From NCBI GenBank assembly GCA_016183325.1, contig JACPEV010000016.1:1-53604 (forward strand): a stretch of 53,604 nt of DNA, given 5' to 3'. The translations under genes were made by a program, and so were the position numbers. Origin of the DNA: Candidatus Curtissbacteria bacterium (GTDB lineage: Bacteria > Patescibacteriota > Microgenomatia > Curtissbacterales > GWA2-41-24). Below, in pieces: positions 6,222-40,966 of the stretch. Under the pieces are notes generated by a model, which saw nothing but the letters and a program-made list of their open reading frames with translations, was not told where the DNA came from and ran no database searches. The first letter of the stretch is position 1; the number at the start of each line of letters is the position of its first letter.

Positions 6222-8513
6222 ATGGAACAATCAAACAATTCAACAATATCCAAGATAACATTTCCCATTAAAGGCATTCATTGTGCATCTTGTATAAGAG
6301 TGCTCGAGCGCTCCCTTAAAAAAGTTGATGGCGTTTCGGAAGCTGTGGTAAATCTTGCAACCGGTAAGGCATCTGTTTTGTTCGATCCGGAAAAAGTTAA
6401 AAATCAAGATCTAGAATCGGCAGTTTCAAATGTCGGGTACAAAGCATTAATAAATGAGCAAACGAAATCCGAAGATGATCAAAAAAAAGAGAGGGAAAAA
6501 GAGTTAAAAGATCTAAGAAACAAAGTTGCACTAAGTCTATTTTCGGGAAGCCTAATTCTTTGGGGAAGCTTCCCTGCTTTAATGGAAACAGCGCCCCTAG
6601 TTCTTAGAAATTCGCTCATACAACTTTTTTTAGCAATACCTGTCCAATTTTGGGCAGGATTTGAATTTTACAGAGCAACGATCCCGGCCCTAAAACATCG
6701 CACGGCAAACATGGATACGTTGGTAGCAATCGGCACAACTGTCGCCTTTGGCTATTCGGCGACTGTGACAATTTTCCCAGGTATTCTCCAAAACATCGGG
6801 ATTGAACCGTCGCCTTATTTTGACGTGTCAACAATAATTATTGGCCTAATTCTTCTTGGACGTTATTTTGAAGCAAAAGCCAAAGCTGGCACTTCCGAAG
6901 CCATAAAAAAACTTATTGGTTTGCAGGCGAAAACCGCACGAGTTATGCAACACACAAAAGAAGTAGATGTTCCAATTGAGCAAGTAGTTATTGGAAATAT
7001 TATTAGAGTTCGGCCAGGCGAAAAAATCCCTGTAGATGGTGTAATTATTGAGGGAGAATCTTCCATTGATGAATCAATGATTACCGGCGAGAGCATCCCA
7101 ACTGATAAAGCAAAAGGAGATACCGTAATTGGAGCGACAATCAATAAAACCGGAACTTTTACCTATAAAGCGACAAAAGTGGGCAGCGATACCATGCTTG
7201 CCCAGATAATAAAGCTCGTTGAAGCTGCACAAGGCAGCAAAGCACCAATTCAGCGCCTAGCCGATTTAATTTCTTCATATTTTGTACCTATCGTTATCAT
7301 GCTGGCATTTGTGACATTTGGTGTCTGGTATATTTTTCCAGCACAGCCGGCTTTTTTGTTTGCTCTTCTTAATACTATCGCGGTTTTAATTATCGCTTGT
7401 CCTTGTGCAATGGGACTTGCAACACCAACCGCCATCATGGTCGGAACCGGCAAAGGGGCACAGCAAGGTATCTTGATTAAAGATGCAGAGAGTCTTGAGA
7501 TCGCCAACAAGATTAATACTATTATATTTGATAAAACGGGAACACTAACAAAAGGTAAACCGGAAGTGACAGATGTTATCCCGTCCCCTTCTGTCATTCC
7601 CGCGAAAGCGGGAATCCATAATCAAAAGATCCTGAAACAAGTTCAGGATGACATACTGAAGCTGGCAGCTTCTATTGAAAAAGGATCGGAGCATTCTCTT
7701 GCGGAGGCAATAGTCAAAAAAGCCGAAGATGAAAAACTTGTCCTGGACAAAGTCGAAGGATTCCAAGCAATTGCAGGACACGGCGTAGAAGGCTTTGTCG
7801 GTAAAAATCAGATTTTCTTGGGCAATAGACGGCTGATAGAAAAGGAAAAAATTGCCTTAGCATCATTGGAAAGAGAAATTAGCAAATTAGAGAACGAAGG
7901 AAAAACTGTCATGATATTAGCCGCTAATCGTAAATTAGCTGGACTCATTGCAGTGGCTGATACCGTCAAAGATTCGGCAAAAGATGGCGTTAGCAAGCTT
8001 CAAAAGCGTGGAATCGAAGTTGTCATGATCACTGGCGATAATCAAAAAACAGCAAGTGCAATTGCTCAAAAACTGGGTATTAAGCGAGTATTATCTGAAG
8101 TTTTGCCAGACCAAAAAGAAGCAGAAGTTAGAAAAATCCAGGCTGAGGGCAAAAAGGTTGCTATGGTTGGCGACGGCATCAATGATGCTCCGGCTCTTGC
8201 AGCAGCAGATGTTGGCATTGCAATGGGCAGTGGCACAGATGTTGCTATCGAAGCCGCTGATATAACCCTCATTAATAAAGATTTAACAAGCGTTGCATCA
8301 GCTATAGAACTTTCCAAAAAAACAATGCGCACAATTAAACTTAATCTTTTTTGGGCATTTGGCTATAATGTTCTCTTAATACCAGTGGCAATGGGAGTTT
8401 TATACCCCTTTCTCGGGATTCTGCTAAACCCAATTTTTGCATCTGTTGCCATGGCTGCAAGTTCTATCTCTGTTGTTTCTAATTCACTGTTGCTAAAGAG
8501 GTATAAAATTTAG
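6222..8513 (+). CDS. copA: Cu(I)-translocating P1B-type ATPase
   Basis: [29 protein letters not shown] and MAASS motifs. Confidence 0.95.
7592..7653. repeat. palindromic repeat doublet inserted in frame in copA
   Basis: tgtcattcccgcgaaagcgggaatcca...agatcctgaaacaagttcaggatgaca encodes [20 protein letters not shown]; related intergenic copies near 29650 and 44640. Confidence 0.85.
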
Positions 8514-35709: not shown

Positions 35710-36936
35710 ATGGAGCAATCAAATTCTGTAAGAAGTAACCATTCTAGTGAGCAGCCTCAACACATAGACTCTACGTTACCGCAAGGGAAGAGTGTGAATA
35801 ACTCTGGAAGTACAAAAACTCCTTTTTGGAAAAGTGATACATTTTTTGTTATTACGATTTTTCTTTTTGGACCGTTATCATTCCTGTGGGCTCCAAAAGA
35901 AATCTTTGAATCACAAGTAACGATTACAAGACCATCTCCTTTAAAGCTACTTATGGCAGTTTTTCTCTCATTTGTTATCCCAAGCCTATTCACTTATATG
36001 GCTTATTCGAATATAGACATTTGGAAGACGAAACCAGATGTAGCAATACTTTTTATGATATGGATATTTATTTTTCTTGTTGTTAGTTTTATTAGTTGTT
36101 TTACACTATTTCCAGGGCTTGGCAATATTGTGAGAAGAAATAGGATCATTTTTGTAATCTCTTTCGCCATTATCTTGACTATTGTATCAACCTCGTTAGA
36201 TTTTATTGTAGTGATACTTGGAGCGTATGAGGGTGCACTCCCTTCAGTAATCCAAGACAATCTAGCAATCATCGTACTGACAGCAGTATCTATTGGATCC
36301 GCAATAACATATTTCAAAACGCGAAGTCCTATCCATAAAAAGATGGTCGGTACATTGACTGTTATAGTGATAGTGTTAACGATAGCAATTTTGCCTCTAT
36401 TTTTAACATGGGGTTCAGAAATAACAAAAATGTATGGCAATTATCTAAAAAAACAAGGCGATCTTGTTCCCGTGGTAGAGACCCGAATGGGATACACTAT
36501 TAATCTCTACCCAGCGGATGGCTATTGGCAATCACGGGAATTAGGAGAATATTCTCGAGTAACATCTAAAAATGGTTATCAACTTACAATTGAAAAAGCA
36601 CAAACAAATGAAACAACACTGGAAGGATTCGTTGAAGAAAGGATACAACAAATTAAGCAGCGAGCAGAGGAGAGGGCCTTAAAGCAAGGCGTTTCTTGTT
36701 ATCAGCCAGAATTTCAAGAGACTGTTAGTGATGATAACTGGCAAGGAGTACGAGTAACATTATCTGATTGTTTTGATGTAGGGGATATGAAAGTGTATCT
36801 GAAGCATAATAAAAATTTTTATGTAATTTCTCTAAATTATCCTTTGTCATATGCAAACTATGTAAACAAAGATGCGAATCGGCAGAGGGCCTTAAATAAT
36901 TTTAACTTAATGCTTGCTTCTCTTCAATTCCAATAA
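35710..36936 (+). CDS. multi-TM membrane protein with C-terminal soluble domain
   Basis: About six TM segments followed by a PsbP-like tail ending F..ML.SLQF. Confidence 0.7.
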   Translation: MEQSNSVRSNHSSEQPQHIDSTLPQGKSVNNSGSTKTPFWKSDTFFVITIFLFGPLSFLWAPKEIFESQVTITRPSPLKLLMAVFLSFVIPSLFTYMAYSNIDIWKTKPDVAILFMIWIFIFLVVSFISCFTLFPGLGNIVRRNRIIFVISFAIILTIVSTSLDFIVVILGAYEGALPSVIQDNLAIIVLTAVSIGSAITYFKTRSPIHKKMVGTLTVIVIVLTIAILPLFLTWGSEITKMYGNYLKKQGDLVPVVETRMGYTINLYPADGYWQSRELGEYSRVTSKNGYQLTIEKAQTNETTLEGFVEERIQQIKQRAEERALKQGVSCYQPEFQETVSDDNWQGVRVTLSDCFDVGDMKVYLKHNKNFYVISLNYPLSYANYVNKDANRQRALNNFNLMLASLQFQ

Positions 36937-36938
36937 GC

Positions 36939-36997
36939 GTAACAGGTTAGTTCTTCGGAAGTAGTCATTCTGGAAGGAGGCTGAAAGCCGACTGATA
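36939..36997 (+). mobile_element. truncated copy of the MITE-like element
   Basis: Left TIR gtaacaggttagtt plus the first internal palindrome; the rest is absent. Confidence 0.7.
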
Positions 36998-37082
36998 TAG
37001 GAGGGTAAGACGTCCCCTGAGGTCCCCTGAGGGACGGTCCTGAGAAGGATTGTTACAACAGTCCCAAAAACTAGAAAATTAA

Positions 37083-37115
37083 ATCAATCATTCAAAGTAA
37101 ATTGTGCAGTCAAAA
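37083..37115 (+). repeat. 33-bp direct repeat, left of the nitrogen module
   Basis: 32/33 identical to 40986-41018. Confidence 0.85.
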
Positions 37116-37170
37116 CTTCTTTTGCCAAAAAGATATTTTTGCATTATACTTAGGGGCTAAATTTGAGAAT

Positions 37171-37902
37171 ATGGCGACCAAAAAACCCAATGGTTTGACA
37201 GATAACGCTTCGTGGCTACAAGTTATAAACCTGCTTTCGGACCTTGTGGTTTACAACCATTACGATTTCGACGAGTTTTTGAAAAAACTAATAAAAGTTG
37301 TCATTGAAGTAATCCCTACAGACTCTTGCCTGATATATTTCTACGATCAAGATAAATCCGAACTTATCCTGATCGGATCTAAAAAACCGCATAAAGAACA
37401 ACTTGGAAAAATCATTTTGAGAAAAGGCGAAGGGATCACCGGTTGGGTTGCCGAACACAAGCAAACTGTCGCCATTGAAAAAGAAGCGTATAAAGACCCT
37501 AGATTTAAATTCTTTGAAGACCTACCGGAAGACACTTATGAAAGTTTTCTTTCGGTTCCTATTGTCAACCAAGCCGGTGTTGTTGGTGTCGTCAATCTGC
37601 AGAACAGAAAGCCTTACAAATTTTCAAAAATCGAAATTAAAACAATCGAATCTTTAGTCAAACTAATCGCTTCTGCATTTGTCAAAGTAGTTTTAAAAAG
37701 ACAAGTTGACCGACTTGAAAATCAGCTTGAAGAAAGAAAAGTAATTGAAAAAGCCAAAGGACTCTTAATGAAATACAAAAATTTGGATGAAGCGACAACT
37801 TACAAATTTTTAAGGCAAGAGTCGATGAATAGACGAAAATCGATGAAAGAGGTTGCTGAGTCTATATTGTTAGTTTATGAAGCGCTGGGAAAATATCCGT
37901 AA
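37171..37902 (+). CDS. GAF + ANTAR RNA-binding regulator
   Basis: GEGITGWVA...D.RF...SFLSVP (GAF); LEERKVIEKAKGLLM...LR..SM..R.SMKEVA (ANTAR). Confidence 0.92.
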   Translation: MATKKPNGLTDNASWLQVINLLSDLVVYNHYDFDEFLKKLIKVVIEVIPTDSCLIYFYDQDKSELILIGSKKPHKEQLGKIILRKGEGITGWVAEHKQTVAIEKEAYKDPRFKFFEDLPEDTYESFLSVPIVNQAGVVGVVNLQNRKPYKFSKIEIKTIESLVKLIASAFVKVVLKRQVDRLENQLEERKVIEKAKGLLMKYKNLDEATTYKFLRQESMNRRKSMKEVAESILLVYEALGKYP

Positions 37903-38000
37903 TGCGAAGTCTCATTTTTCCAAAAACAACAATTACTAATATACTAGTATATTAGTAGCAAACTGTCATTCAGAGGTTCGGCCAACTGAAGTCCGGCAAC

Positions 38001-38030
38001 TTGACAAAAGTGCTAGCATTCATTTAATCT
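38001..38030 (+). promoter_or_regulatory. glnA promoter
   Basis: TTGACA-18-TAATCT immediately upstream of the ANTAR hairpins. Confidence 0.6.
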
Positions 38031-38041
38031 AAAAGAGAATC

Positions 38042-38079
38042 ATCTTCAAAGTCGAAGATTCTTCAAGACAAAGTAGTCT
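38042..38079 (+). promoter_or_regulatory. ANTAR-target dual-hairpin RNA
   Basis: atcttc-AAAGTC-gaagat and agac-AAAGTA-gtct: two hexaloops with A1/G4, C-G closing pairs and a 6-nt linker; adjacent to the ANTAR gene. Confidence 0.85.
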
Positions 38080-38094
38080 CCAAAGCAGTTTAAA

Positions 38095-38198
38095 TATTCT
38101 TCGAGCGACCCTGAGCGAAGTCGAAGGGGAGTCGAGAAGTTACCTTAAAAATTATTAATATTTTAAGTGGTAAGTTCTCGCTAATCGCTCGAACAATA
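38095..38198. repeat. long palindromic repeat in the glnA leader
   Basis: tattcttcgagcg/cgctcgaacaata and cgagaagttacc/ggtaagttctcg pair; nested ccctgagcgaagtcgaaggg. Confidence 0.8.
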
Positions 38199-38222
38199 AT
38201 TTAATATCAGCAGAATTTTTAC

Positions 38223-39626
38223 ATGATTGATCTTAGAAAAGTTTTAACGCTCACAAGATCCGGCGAAATCGAATTTGTCGATTTACGTTTCGTCGATCTG
38301 CGCGGTGTTTGGCAGCATATGTCAATTCCGGCACATGAACTGAAAGAAAAAAATTTAGAGATGGGTTATGGGTTCGACGGCTCAAGCATCCGCGGTTTTC
38401 AGACAATCTCAGAAAGCGACATGCTTTTGATGCCGGATGTCAAAACTTTTTTTTTCGATCCGTTTTTTGAAAAAACAATAAATGTAATTTGCAATGTTTT
38501 CGATCCTGCAACCGGCAAGAATTACCCAAAAGATCCGCGCTACACTGCCCAAAAAGCCGAAAACTATCTTAAAAAATCGGGCATTGGCGATATTTCTTAT
38601 TGGGGACCGGAAATAGAATACTTCCTGTTCGACAGTCTCGGATACTACGTCTCTCCTTACGAGTCATTTGTCAAAATCGCAAGCTCTGAATTTCCTCCTG
38701 AAGATCCTAACTCTCCAAAAGACGGATATAAAATCCTTCATAAAACCGGCTACTTTCCAGTCCCACCTTTTGATAAGCTTCAAGCTTTTAGATCGGAGTT
38801 TGTTATCTTGCTTGAAAAAAATGGAGTTGAAATCGAAGTCCATCATCACGAAGTTGCCTCCGGCGGTCAGGTTGAAATTGACATGCACTATGACGCACTA
38901 ACTGCCATGGCCGATAAAGTCATGATCTACAAATACTTAGCCAGAAACCTCGCCAAAAAATACCAAATGACTGCTTGCTTTTTGCCAAAGCCGCTTTACG
39001 CTGACAACGGATCTGGTATGCATACACACCAAAGCCTGTTTAAACAGGGCCGAAATCTTTTCTATGACCCAAAGGGATACGCTGAAATGTCCGAAATTGG
39101 TTTTTCTTATCTGGCAGGACTCCTGGTAAATATCAAAACTCTTCTTGCAATTACCAATCCCACAGTCAACTCTTACAGACGACTCGTACCCCACTTCGAG
39201 GCACCGACTTCAATCGCCTTTTCAAAAAGGAACAGGAGTGCCACAGTCAGAATCCCCATGTATTACAAAAAAATTCCCAATGCCAAAAGAATAGAATTCA
39301 GAGTTCCTGATCCAACTTGCAACCCATATTTATCTTTTGCTGCACAATTGGTCTATGGTATTGAGGGCATTAAAAATAAGCTGGATCCCAAAAAACTCGG
39401 TTTTGGCCCGCACGATGAAAATATTTACGAAATGGCAAAGATTGAACAAACCCCAAACAATCTTTTTACCGTTTTGGAAAATCTTAAAAAAGATCAAATA
39501 CTCATAAAAAGCGGCGTCTTTGACGCCCAGCTAGTCAACAGCTATCTGGATGTCAGAACCGAAGACGCCCAGCAAAATCTTCTTTACCCGACACCTGCCG
39601 ATTTCATGTTCTACTCGGACATTTAA
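38223..39626 (+). CDS. glnA: glutamine synthetase type I (beta-like)
   Basis: FDGSSI, HHEVA, KP...DNGSGMHTH, NRSA and RIEFR.PD motifs; GSI-beta insertion; NIYE. Confidence 0.96.
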   Translation: MIDLRKVLTLTRSGEIEFVDLRFVDLRGVWQHMSIPAHELKEKNLEMGYGFDGSSIRGFQTISESDMLLMPDVKTFFFDPFFEKTINVICNVFDPATGKNYPKDPRYTAQKAENYLKKSGIGDISYWGPEIEYFLFDSLGYYVSPYESFVKIASSEFPPEDPNSPKDGYKILHKTGYFPVPPFDKLQAFRSEFVILLEKNGVEIEVHHHEVASGGQVEIDMHYDALTAMADKVMIYKYLARNLAKKYQMTACFLPKPLYADNGSGMHTHQSLFKQGRNLFYDPKGYAEMSEIGFSYLAGLLVNIKTLLAITNPTVNSYRRLVPHFEAPTSIAFSKRNRSATVRIPMYYKKIPNAKRIEFRVPDPTCNPYLSFAAQLVYGIEGIKNKLDPKKLGFGPHDENIYEMAKIEQTPNNLFTVLENLKKDQILIKSGVFDAQLVNSYLDVRTEDAQQNLLYPTPADFMFYSDI

Positions 39627-39634
39627 AAAGATAA

Positions 39635-40966
39635 ATGAATCTGACATTTGCAGTTTTACTGATAATTTTATTAGGAGTTGCAACTACTTTTTTTGCCACA
39701 AACTTTGCCGGAGCATCAGCCGGGGATTTTGATCCGACCACTATTTCAAGCGGCGATACGGCCTGGGTTCTGGCAGCAGCAGCACTGGTTATGATCATGA
39801 CCCCGGCAGTCGGTTTTTTCTATGGCGGCATGGTGCGCGCCAAAAACGTGGTCAGCGTTATCAAGCAATCTTTGGTTATTTTGGCTCTTGTGGGCATTCA
39901 ATGGGTTATTTTGGGTTACAGTCTTGTATTCGGTCGAGACATAAACGGGCTAATTGGAGGTCTTGATTTTTTTGGTCTAAGAAATGTTGGTTTTGCTGCG
40001 AATCCCGATTATGCCGCCACTATCCCTCATTTGGCCTACATGATCTTTCAGGCTATGTTTGCCATAATTACTCCGGCATTAATAATCGGTTCATTTGTTG
40101 AGAGAATCCGCTTCAGAACCCTTGTCCTCTTCATACTTTTATGGGCGACTTTTGTTTATGATCCAATTGCCCATTGGGTCTGGGGAGTCGGCGGATGGCT
40201 AAGAACTTTGGGTGCTTTGGATTTTGCTGGCGGTACAGTTGTTCACATCAGTGCCGGTTTTTCTGCTCTTGCCGCCGCCATTTTAGTTGGTAAAAGAAGC
40301 GATGTTAAAGATCACAAGATCTCAGCCAACAACGTTCCGCTGGTTCTAATTGGCGCTTCACTTTTATGGTTTGGCTGGTTTGGTTTCAATGCAGGCAGCG
40401 CCCTTTCAGCATCACCCCTTGCGGCCAGCGCCTTCGTGGTAACCAATACTGCCGCTGCTGCCGCCGCCTTGGTCTGGATGGTTCTTTCCTGGGCAGAACA
40501 TAAAAAACCAAGCGCACTAGCTACTGCAACCGGTGCGGTCTGCGGCCTTGTCGCAATCACTCCGGCCAGCGGCTTTGTCGGTCCAATTGCATCAATCGCG
40601 ATAGGAATAATTGCAGGAGTGGCGACATATTTGGCCCTACGCTATAGAAGCCTTTATACCAAAATTGATGATACACTCGATGTCTGGGCCGCACACGGTG
40701 TAGGTGGCCTAACAGGAGCGGTTCTTACCGGAGTTTTTGCCGAAAAAGCCATCAACAGCGCTGGCAACAACGGTTTTTTATTTGGCAATCCCGGCCAATT
40801 GCCAATACAGCTGACTGCAGTCGCGGCAACTTCTATTTATGCTTTTATTGCTACCTGGATAATTCTTAAAGTCTTAAGCTTCATAAGTGATCTGCGAGTA
40901 AGTGAAAAAGAAGAAAAACTGGGCCTAGACCAATCTGTCCACGGTGAATCCGGCTACCGCTTTTAA
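39635..40966 (+). CDS. amtB: ammonium transporter
   Basis: DTAWVL, DFAGGTVVH, WFGWFGFNAGS and DDTLDV..HG motifs. Confidence 0.96.
   Translation: MNLTFAVLLIILLGVATTFFATNFAGASAGDFDPTTISSGDTAWVLAAAALVMIMTPAVGFFYGGMVRAKNVVSVIKQSLVILALVGIQWVILGYSLVFGRDINGLIGGLDFFGLRNVGFAANPDYAATIPHLAYMIFQAMFAIITPALIIGSFVERIRFRTLVLFILLWATFVYDPIAHWVWGVGGWLRTLGALDFAGGTVVHISAGFSALAAAILVGKRSDVKDHKISANNVPLVLIGASLLWFGWFGFNAGSALSASPLAASAFVVTNTAAAAAALVWMVLSWAEHKKPSALATATGAVCGLVAITPASGFVGPIASIAIGIIAGVATYLALRYRSLYTKIDDTLDVWAAHGVGGLTGAVLTGVFAEKAINSAGNNGFLFGNPGQLPIQLTAVAATSIYAFIATWIILKVLSFISDLRVSEKEEKLGLDQSVHGESGYRF

Follow-up and report, generated by a model that had tools for sequence, protein, structure and literature searches.

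A GAF-ANTAR regulator and a dual-hexaloop leader at the glnA-amtB operon of a Candidatus Curtissbacteria bacterium

In a Candidatus Curtissbacteria bacterium, the genes for a glutamine synthetase and an ammonium transporter (glnA-amtB) are preceded by a gene for a GAF-ANTAR protein and by a leader with two small hairpins, which raises the question of whether the protein controls the two genes through these hairpins and, if so, by what output. The DNA analyzed here (the window) is contig JACPEV010000016.1 (GCA_016183325.1), 53,604 nt in length, from a genome of 1.21 Mb that is 95% complete. We propose with moderate confidence that the GAF-ANTAR protein binds the leader hairpins and tunes glnA-amtB according to a ligand sensed by its PtsP-like GAF domain, a ligand that would be glutamine. 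The features of the window on which this proposal is built are the following.

37171..37902, plus strand: gene of the GAF-ANTAR one-component regulator, 243 aa from the first ATG (MATKK...), stop at 37902
38001..38028, plus strand: sigma-70-like promoter of the glnA leader, read by eye (TTGACA at 38001-38006, 16 nt, TTTAAT at 38023-38028)
38037..38064, plus strand: hairpin P1, core ATCTTC[AAAGTC]GAAGAT at 38042-38059, with outer GAA/TTC pairs (38037-38039 with 38062-38064)
38066..38079, plus strand: hairpin P2, AGAC[AAAGTA]GTCT
38223..39626, plus strand: glnA, type I glutamine synthetase (Pfam Gln-synt_C, 370.5 bits; NCBIfam TIGR00653, 532.2 against a cut-off of 429.15)
39635..40966, plus strand: amtB, ammonium transporter (Pfam Ammonium_transp, PF00909, 412.8 bits; NCBIfam TIGR00836, 457.9 against a cut-off of 343.3)

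A GAF-ANTAR gene ahead of glnA-amtB had been reported in an earlier note on this DNA, and sequence and Pfam searches confirmed all three genes. The regulator open reading frame (ORF), searched as 37162-37902 and thus with three residues more than the ORF from the first ATG, matches Pfam ANTAR (PF03861) with 68.8 bits against a cut-off of 27.3, covering profile positions 2-54 of 54, and the families GAF_2 (59.8 bits), GAF and GAF_3 all exceed their cut-offs across residues 35-173. The protein has the architecture of a one-component regulator, with an N-terminal GAF and a C-terminal ANTAR domain. Its ORF is of full length and keeps all ten invariant columns of a 30-sequence family alignment. The solved ANTAR proteins that it matches by sequence are EutV-type 6wsh, Rv1626 (1s8n), NasR (4akk) and AmiR (1qo0). 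Neither ORF flanking the regulator gene has a Pfam match, so that no kinase is apparent beside it. By profile search it is the only ANTAR gene of the genome, and it lies directly upstream of the glnA leader. GlnA scores above the equivalog cut-off for type I glutamine synthetase (GS; TIGR00653). The amtB gene begins 8 nt after the glnA stop, and the two genes are probably co-transcribed given this short gap.

An ANTAR-target RNA, as defined in the sections cited of PMC3369931 and PMC8934654, carries two loops of six nt with A at position 1 and G at position 4. The earlier note had described a TTGACA promoter followed by two such hairpins with C-G closing pairs and a 6-nt linker, a description with which both the sequence and the predicted fold agree. 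The loops of P1 and P2 alike have six nt, A at position 1, G at position 4 and a C-G closing pair, and the linker, TCTTCA, spans 6 nt (1 nt should the outer pairs of P1 form as well), within the range of 1-7 nt seen in six related leaders. Our promoter scan demands A at position 2 of the second hexamer and hence did not list TTGACA-16-TTTAAT. The predicted transcript start is at about 38035, 1-6 nt ahead of P1, and the same layout from promoter to P1 is found in the related leaders L041 (TTGACG-16-TAAAAT, called by the scan) and L091/L092. Both hairpins, together with a long hairpin further downstream, are present in the minimum-energy and the centroid fold, with pair probabilities in the leader context of 0.6-0.84 for the P1 core and 0.88-0.99 for P2.

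Covariance models single out the leader site. Model R2, built from six leaders of relatives with the window left out, places 38040-38083 at the top of the whole genome (25.0 bits, E 0.019; runner-up 18.2 bits), and within the window, with filters off, the site reaches E 0.00084. Model R1, which includes the window, finds one strong site in the genome (46.1 bits; next 21.1 bits), suggesting a one-target regulon. Among 101 related genomes, model matches of at least 46 bits are confined to the 4 that encode the GAF-ANTAR protein; three others reach 22-25 bits, about chance level, and the best motif score at 30 glnA loci of sampled phylum genomes lacking a significant ANTAR match is 14.4 bits. A scan of 36800-38400 against Rfam in E-value mode gave nine matches, all with E of at least 3.8 and none relevant. 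The covariance-model check called for earlier thus came out in favor of the motif, since a model built without the window ranks it first in the genome. The assignment of the two hairpins to the ANTAR-target type is likewise upheld: they adjoin the sole ANTAR gene, are recognized by R2 and co-occur with the regulator in relatives.

The regulator is encoded in 4 of the 61 genomes of the family and its near kin, the window genome counted; the remaining three belong to a single genus, g6, represented by four genomes. Its closest homologs are in four Patescibacteria genomes (59-66% identity), followed by many from Acidobacteriota and other phyla at no more than 48%. Locus L041, whose glnA leader is the closest homologous one, repeats the arrangement of the window, with the regulator gene, the promoter, P1 (TTTCTTC[AGCGTT]GAAGAAA), P2 (AAGAC[AAAGTT]GTCTT), a third hairpin of the same type and then a glnA 63% identical to that of the window, beginning 22 nt past the third hairpin. 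The L041 leader contains neither a terminator nor the repeat described below. At L041 6929-6996, the second and third hairpins have identical AAGAC/GTCTT stems and could swap partners. In the genomes of L009/L010, the regulator (63% identical) is encoded on a contig other than that of the motif-bearing GS-family gene, which is preceded by TTGACA-17-TATAAA, P1 and P2 (leaders L091/L092), with P2 ending 13-15 nt before the ATG; this gene is 36-37% identical to GlnA of the window and does not reach the GlnA equivalog cut-off. In genus g6, small ORFs (no Pfam family) and the regulator gene follow the motif, which overlaps a canonical terminator in which the P2 loop forms the 5' arm; the terminator was called at L007 3114-3138, starting on the first base of the P2 loop. 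The leaders of this type, one or two per locus, are the following.

L006 2577-2640 and 3040-3100: dual-hexaloop/terminator leaders
L007 3081-3145: dual-hexaloop/terminator leader
L008 2105-2045, minus strand: dual-hexaloop/terminator leader

The g6 regulator appears to control its own operon, and no glnA was found in the four g6 genomes with our query. The layouts of the relatives vary: the motif stands either before GS genes without a terminator or before the regulator operon with an overlapping terminator, and its distance to the ATG is 13-52 nt.

Beyond these relatives, the link to glnA fades. A hairpin scan allowing 3-bp stems and G-U pairs was too noisy for use; with stems of at least 4 bp, a dual hexaloop was found within 500 nt downstream of the gene at 6 of 79 distant GAF-ANTAR loci, and its density at distant loci was 0.179 per kb downstream of the gene vs 0.028 per kb elsewhere. 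R1 recovered only its own seed in 80 distant loci and is too lineage-specific for other phyla. In distant relatives, Acidobacteriota included, the regulator gene stands at the end of an operon or is fused to other domains, and the 80 loci show no link to glnA, with GlnA adjacent in 1 and AmtB nearby in 7. In some Acidobacteriota the GAF-ANTAR part is fused behind a uroporphyrinogen-III synthase (HemD) domain (L011 5059-6639). A metagenome scan based on GlnA gave 18 loci, all at most 56% identical and on DNA of 56-70% G+C; they are uninformative on the leader because ANTAR and AmtB matches are missing from the vicinity of all 18.

Having placed the motif, we asked how it could act on glnA. P2 ends 143 nt before the glnA ATG, unlike the translational class of ANTAR targets and also unlike L091/L092, where the distance is only 13-15 nt; nor does P2 overlap the 5' arm of an intrinsic terminator, as it does in the antitermination class, or take part in a competing fold. 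The earlier note had likewise seen no overlap with a terminator or ribosome-binding site, and the terminator scan and the folds agree on this point. Most of the 143 nt is occupied by one element.

38094..38199, plus strand: nested-palindrome dispersed repeat resembling a miniature inverted-repeat transposable element (MITE-like), flanked by TTTAA at 38089-38093 and 38200-38204

The long, repeat-derived hairpin noted earlier between the motif and glnA is real; it measures 106 nt, and its modules are repeated across the genome. Its termini are of the TTATTCTTCGAGCG / CGCTCGAACAATAA type and its inner stem is GAGAAGTTACC / GGTAAGTTCTC. The modules recur 26, 11, 4 and 3 times in the genome (at set mismatch levels), mostly outside long ORFs, with 100% identity to other copies over 22-31 nt, and full-length relatives of the repeat lie at unrelated places of the genome. 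Many copies, terminal inverted repeats and the absence of coding capacity make the element MITE-like. TTTAA is present on both flanks of the leader copy, as expected of a target-site duplication; among the matches listed, such a duplication is not evident at other copies. The repeat is absent from the homologous leaders L041, L091 and L092, and it folds alone at -36.3 kcal/mol, independently of P1 and P2. Without the repeat and one TTTAA, P2 would sit about 32 nt from the ATG, within the range of the relatives. Because its copies are dispersed, the homologous leaders lack it and the restored spacing fits the relatives, we conclude that the repeat hairpin is a passenger, a later insertion by which the distance from the motif to the AUG grew from about 32 to 143 nt, and it may have weakened control by the leader. 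The suggestion of the earlier note that the repeat serves as an expression platform finds no support in these observations, as the element is a dispersed one, is missing from the L041, L091 and L092 leaders and folds apart from P1 and P2.

The remaining question is that of the output. The regulator, probably as a dimer, would bind P1 and P2, with their A1/G4 hexaloops, at the 5' end of the glnA-amtB transcript and, once bound, would set the amounts of glutamine synthetase and ammonium transporter according to the nitrogen-status ligand of its PtsP-like GAF domain; binding of the regulator to P1 and P2 is predicted from the motif and its context. The output would not be canonical antitermination at an intrinsic terminator; instead, the bound protein itself would act on translation initiation or mRNA fate. 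We infer that the protein is the effector because P1 and P2 should form unaided according to the fold predictions, and neither a terminator nor an alternative fold turned up, a reading modeled by analogy on the terminator-less actinobacterial ANTAR targets in the portion cited of PMC8164766. Ramesh 2012 (PMC3369931), in the part cited, also considers that ANTAR matches without terminators may control translation. A core Shine-Dalgarno 4-mer is present upstream of 10.9% of 643 long ORFs vs 9.8% in a control position within ORFs, and several promoters of the genome come within 7-14 nt of the start codon, which suggests that initiation in this genome is of the short-leader or leaderless type and independent of Shine-Dalgarno sites; since these sites are hardly used, the usual sequestration of a ribosome site would not apply. 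The genome encodes both Rho and RNase III.

For the direction of control, we tentatively suggest product feedback, in which the glutamine-loaded protein would bind and lower glnA-amtB expression; the opposite direction seems a little less probable still. A stronger version of the scheme, which we regard as doubtful, is a minimal circuit free of PII, in which a glutamine-sensing GAF-ANTAR protein would control glnA-amtB without any RNA refolding: bound at the 5'-terminal hairpins, the protein would itself hinder or favor initiation, or shield the 5' end of the mRNA, and the repeat would be tolerated or co-opted as a spacer because its self-folding keeps the flanks together.

The nature of the signal was approached through the GAF domain. 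The solved GAF domains closest to that of the regulator are an unnamed one (3e0y) and the GAF domains of PtsP (profile E 3e-33, 2e-31 and 1e-26), and the first cyclic-nucleotide GAF follows at 7e-22. The best NCBIfam matches of the regulator are PtsP, then NifA and NreA, all below the full-length cut-offs. PtsP, NifA and NreA are nitrogen sensors. The GAF domain of PtsP binds glutamine according to the portion cited of PMC4848567, and since the GAF domain of the regulator is closest to it, its sequence suggests glutamine as the putative ligand, possibly read against 2-oxoglutarate. This likeness to a glutamine-type sensor would narrow the GAF ligand that the earlier note had called unknown.

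Several observations weigh against control of glnA-amtB through P1 and P2. Under a strict pattern (stems of 4 bp or longer with Watson-Crick pairs only, hexaloops of the form A..G.. and no more than 12 nt of linker), the dual hexaloop occurs once in the genome, at the leader site, and ten Markov-simulated genomes hold 0-6 (mean 3.3), so that the bare pattern is not rarer than chance genome-wide; the weight of the motif accordingly comes from its position and from the relatives, and by an arithmetic estimate about 4e-4 such patterns are expected in one leader strand of about 320 nt. In seven aligned leaders, P1/P2 cells pair in 80.7% vs 70.6% after shuffling (0 of 500 shuffles as high; slid controls at most 51%), with changes on both sides in 6 of the 13 P1 and P2 pairs (4 of 7 in P1; seven sequences) and with the GAC[AAAG..]GTC core of P2 kept in all seven, but the seed leaders were chosen by the hairpin scan, which makes these statistics partly built in and supportive rather than independent, and they represent four independent lineages only (the window, L041, L091/L092 and genus g6). 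The regulator gene of L041 has a frame break near 6246-6249, and in one relative that encodes the regulator (G064) a GS-family gene lacks the motif. On the side of mechanism, terminator scan, folds and constraint folding found no expression platform in the leader, no terminator-like site was called there, and P1 and P2 are predicted to form without protein (probabilities 0.6-0.99). Forcing or forbidding P1/P2 shifts the accessibility of the start region of the window only from 0.52 to 0.60 (a shift of at most 0.07), constraint folding of four leaders gave no consistent direction of effect, and at 143 nt from the AUG the motif is beyond any ribosome footprint.

Upstream of the glnA promoter lies an element that bears on one of the alternatives.

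37934..37957, no strand assigned: perfect AT-rich palindrome of 24 bp, a candidate DNA operator, between the regulator gene and the glnA promoter

This palindrome stands outside the ANTAR switch and may add a second layer of control on glnA. Its family comprises seven genome sites within 6 mismatches (37934-37957 and about 51654 in the window, and sites on contigs C2, C4 twice, C21 and C26); four copies are identical over 24 bp, one is without its two end bases and two are diverged. The two diverged copies flank an ORF of 143 aa resembling a Trp repressor (Trp_repressor-like, C4:96847-97278; 29.7 bits vs a cut-off of 27).

Four other explanations were weighed against binding of the regulator at P1/P2 with the protein itself as effector. 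The likeliest of them, though we hold it to be rather unlikely, is that regulator and site are intact but no longer coupled to the operon, as the insertion of the repeat, or cleavage of its hairpin by RNase III, parts the site from the translation start; in that case glnA-amtB would in effect be expressed constitutively, or come under other control, such as that of the palindrome at 37934-37957. The shift of the motif from about 32 nt (13-52 nt in relatives) to 143 nt fits such a loss, the 100% identity of the modules over 22-31 nt suggests a recent insertion, RNase III is encoded in the genome, and the repeated 24-bp palindrome stands just upstream and also flanks the Trp-repressor-like gene elsewhere. 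However, the regulator ORF is of full length and has kept every invariant residue of its family, P1, P2 and the promoter are intact, and a hairpin that folds on itself keeps its flanks close, so that the insertion may be nearly neutral. Mere coincidence, with chance stem-loops and a regulator that acts elsewhere, would be compatible with the short stems (6 and 4 bp) and with the 0-6 such patterns in simulated genomes; we regard it as barely credible, because a leave-one-out model ranks the site first in the genome, no other genome site exceeds 21.1 bits with R1, and the motif stands before GS genes in three other regulator-bearing genomes and was not found in regulator-free genomes.

The other two explanations assign the output to RNA structure. 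Canonical antitermination with the repeat as terminator or expression platform, the latter being the suggestion of the earlier note, would have transcription stop at the 106-nt hairpin unless ANTAR binding to P1/P2 permits read-through. The hairpin is indeed very stable (-36.3 kcal/mol) and lies between motif and glnA, members of this protein family in genus g6 work by true antitermination, and the 3' arm of P1 is complementary over 7 nt to the 5' base of the repeat. Yet the hairpin is not followed by a U-tract; it forms in full next to P1 and P2 in both the minimum-energy and the centroid fold, so that the structures do not exclude one another; and it belongs to a dispersed repeat that recurs with these termini at many unrelated loci and that the L041, L091 and L092 leaders lack, all of which renders this mechanism very unlikely. 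Quite unlikely, too, is a switch in which the P1 region pairs with the start-codon region and blocks initiation until ANTAR binding holds P1 closed and turns expression on. If the folded leader ends at +18, its minimum-energy structure joins 38054-38062 to a U-rich stretch before the AUG (duplex energy -11.8 kcal/mol), and the probability of P1 falls to about 0.27. Once 40 nt of coding sequence are added, on the other hand, P1 returns to the minimum-energy fold and accessibility barely changes, and the pairing is not kept in L041, L091 or L092. This pairing was rejected as significant because its strength is equaled or surpassed when the P1 region is paired with other start regions of the genome (13.7% of 643) or with shuffles (6.1%).

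Binding of the regulator to P1/P2, with the protein as effector, is the reading we retain, and it can be set against the nitrogen metabolism of the genome and phylum. PII, GOGAT and GDH were not detected in the 95%-complete genome, the same searches being positive in 13/14, 14/14 and 14/14 control genomes, respectively. In view of these absences, glnA-amtB would import ammonium and make glutamine from acquired glutamate, with no GS-GOGAT cycle. An ammonium transporter is thus present in a genome in which PII/GlnK was not detected. Among 401 sampled genomes of the phylum, the window genome counted, glnA is found in 59, amtB in 10 and ANTAR in 3, of which only 2 ANTAR matches pass the cut-off; by coordinates, four sampled genomes have a glnA-amtB pair without a significant ANTAR match. 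To call ammonium assimilation genes unexpected in this lineage, as had been done, is overstated in view of the count for glnA; amtB and ANTAR are rare, and the glnA-amtB pair would make glutamine instead of carrying out ammonium assimilation in full. The picture for this bacterium of the candidate phyla radiation (CPR) would be one of nitrogen use by import of ammonium and amidation of glutamate to glutamine, with no detectable route from ammonium to glutamate. In the stronger, doubtful version of the scheme given above, a glutamine-sensing GAF-ANTAR protein would replace the usual PII-based control in a 1.2 Mb genome. The locus is compact, with a single regulator, a single operon and, genome-wide, a single strong site, and could serve to test glutamine sensing by a PtsP-like GAF domain and ANTAR action without a terminator; the insertion of the repeat amounts to a natural experiment on how far an ANTAR site can shift from the start codon.

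The surroundings of the regulator gene contain a further feature.

37122..37150, plus strand: promoter-like site before the regulator gene (TTGCCA, 17 nt, TATACT; 10 of 12 consensus matches)

Promoter-like sites are not enriched in the region (8 found vs a shuffle mean of 8.5), so this one is to be read as a consensus match only. Just upstream of it, at 36995-37055 of the window, lies a G+C-rich patch with reiterated CCCTGAGG-like words, which resembles one module of the dispersed repeats of the genome. The three genes themselves show no clear compositional trace of recent transfer (G+C 0.36-0.51 vs 0.406 for the genome).

We conclude that the switch is real and of a familiar kind, not a new kind of system, and that it draws its own interest from the lack of a terminator, from the repeat within the leader and from a genome where PII, GOGAT and GDH were not detected. 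By title and abstract, no literature on ANTAR in CPR bacteria or Patescibacteria was found to deal with the subject; the sections cited of PMC3369931 and PMC7496416 describe no experimentally characterized GAF-ANTAR regulator, and GAF is mentioned only as a domain type in the part cited of a 2025 review. Predictions of ANTAR leaders ahead of genes for GS and ammonium transporters date back to 2012 (PMC3369931, Table S2; perspective PMC3369936): among the predicted leaders of Ramesh 2012, Table S2 has 'glutamine synthetase' 25 times and 'ammonium transporter' 18 times. Those leaders share with the window the motif and the kinds of genes, as in Alkaliphilus metalliredigens, where an ANTAR gene lies beside a GS gene; they differ in having been selected for an overlapping terminator, in being predictions only, listed without sensor domains in the rows cited, and in coming from cultured phyla, Firmicutes among them.

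The eut leaders of Enterococcus faecalis resemble the leader described here in their dual hexaloop hairpins with A1 and G4, their short constrained linker and their place in the 5' leader of an operon (sections cited of PMC3369931 and PMC8934654). They are recognized by EutV through a dimeric ANTAR domain, a dimer being only proposed here, and EutV is a phosphorylated response regulator whose P2 overlaps an intrinsic terminator, whereas a GAF sensor, no terminator and glnA-amtB as the target are found in the window. GnfK/GnfR of Geobacter sulfurreducens is alike in that an ANTAR regulator controls nitrogen genes, the glnK and amtB leaders among them, and differs in that GnfR is a two-component response regulator that overrides terminators and has a different reported recognition sequence, according to the portion cited of PMC2995071. 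The actinobacterial ANTAR-target RNAs, too, have dual hexaloops, mostly lack terminators and are thought to act on translation; in the part cited of PMC8164766, 37% of these overlap the ribosome site or start codon, whereas the motif in the window is 143 nt away from the start codon, or about 32 nt with the repeat taken out, and its genome makes little use of Shine-Dalgarno sites. On the sensory side, the solved and named GAF domain that comes closest is that of PtsP (EI-Ntr), which is also the best NCBIfam match and takes part in nitrogen signaling; the likeness is one of overall sequence, and, in the section cited of PMC4848567, PtsP has a phosphotransferase output where the regulator of the window has an RNA-binding domain.

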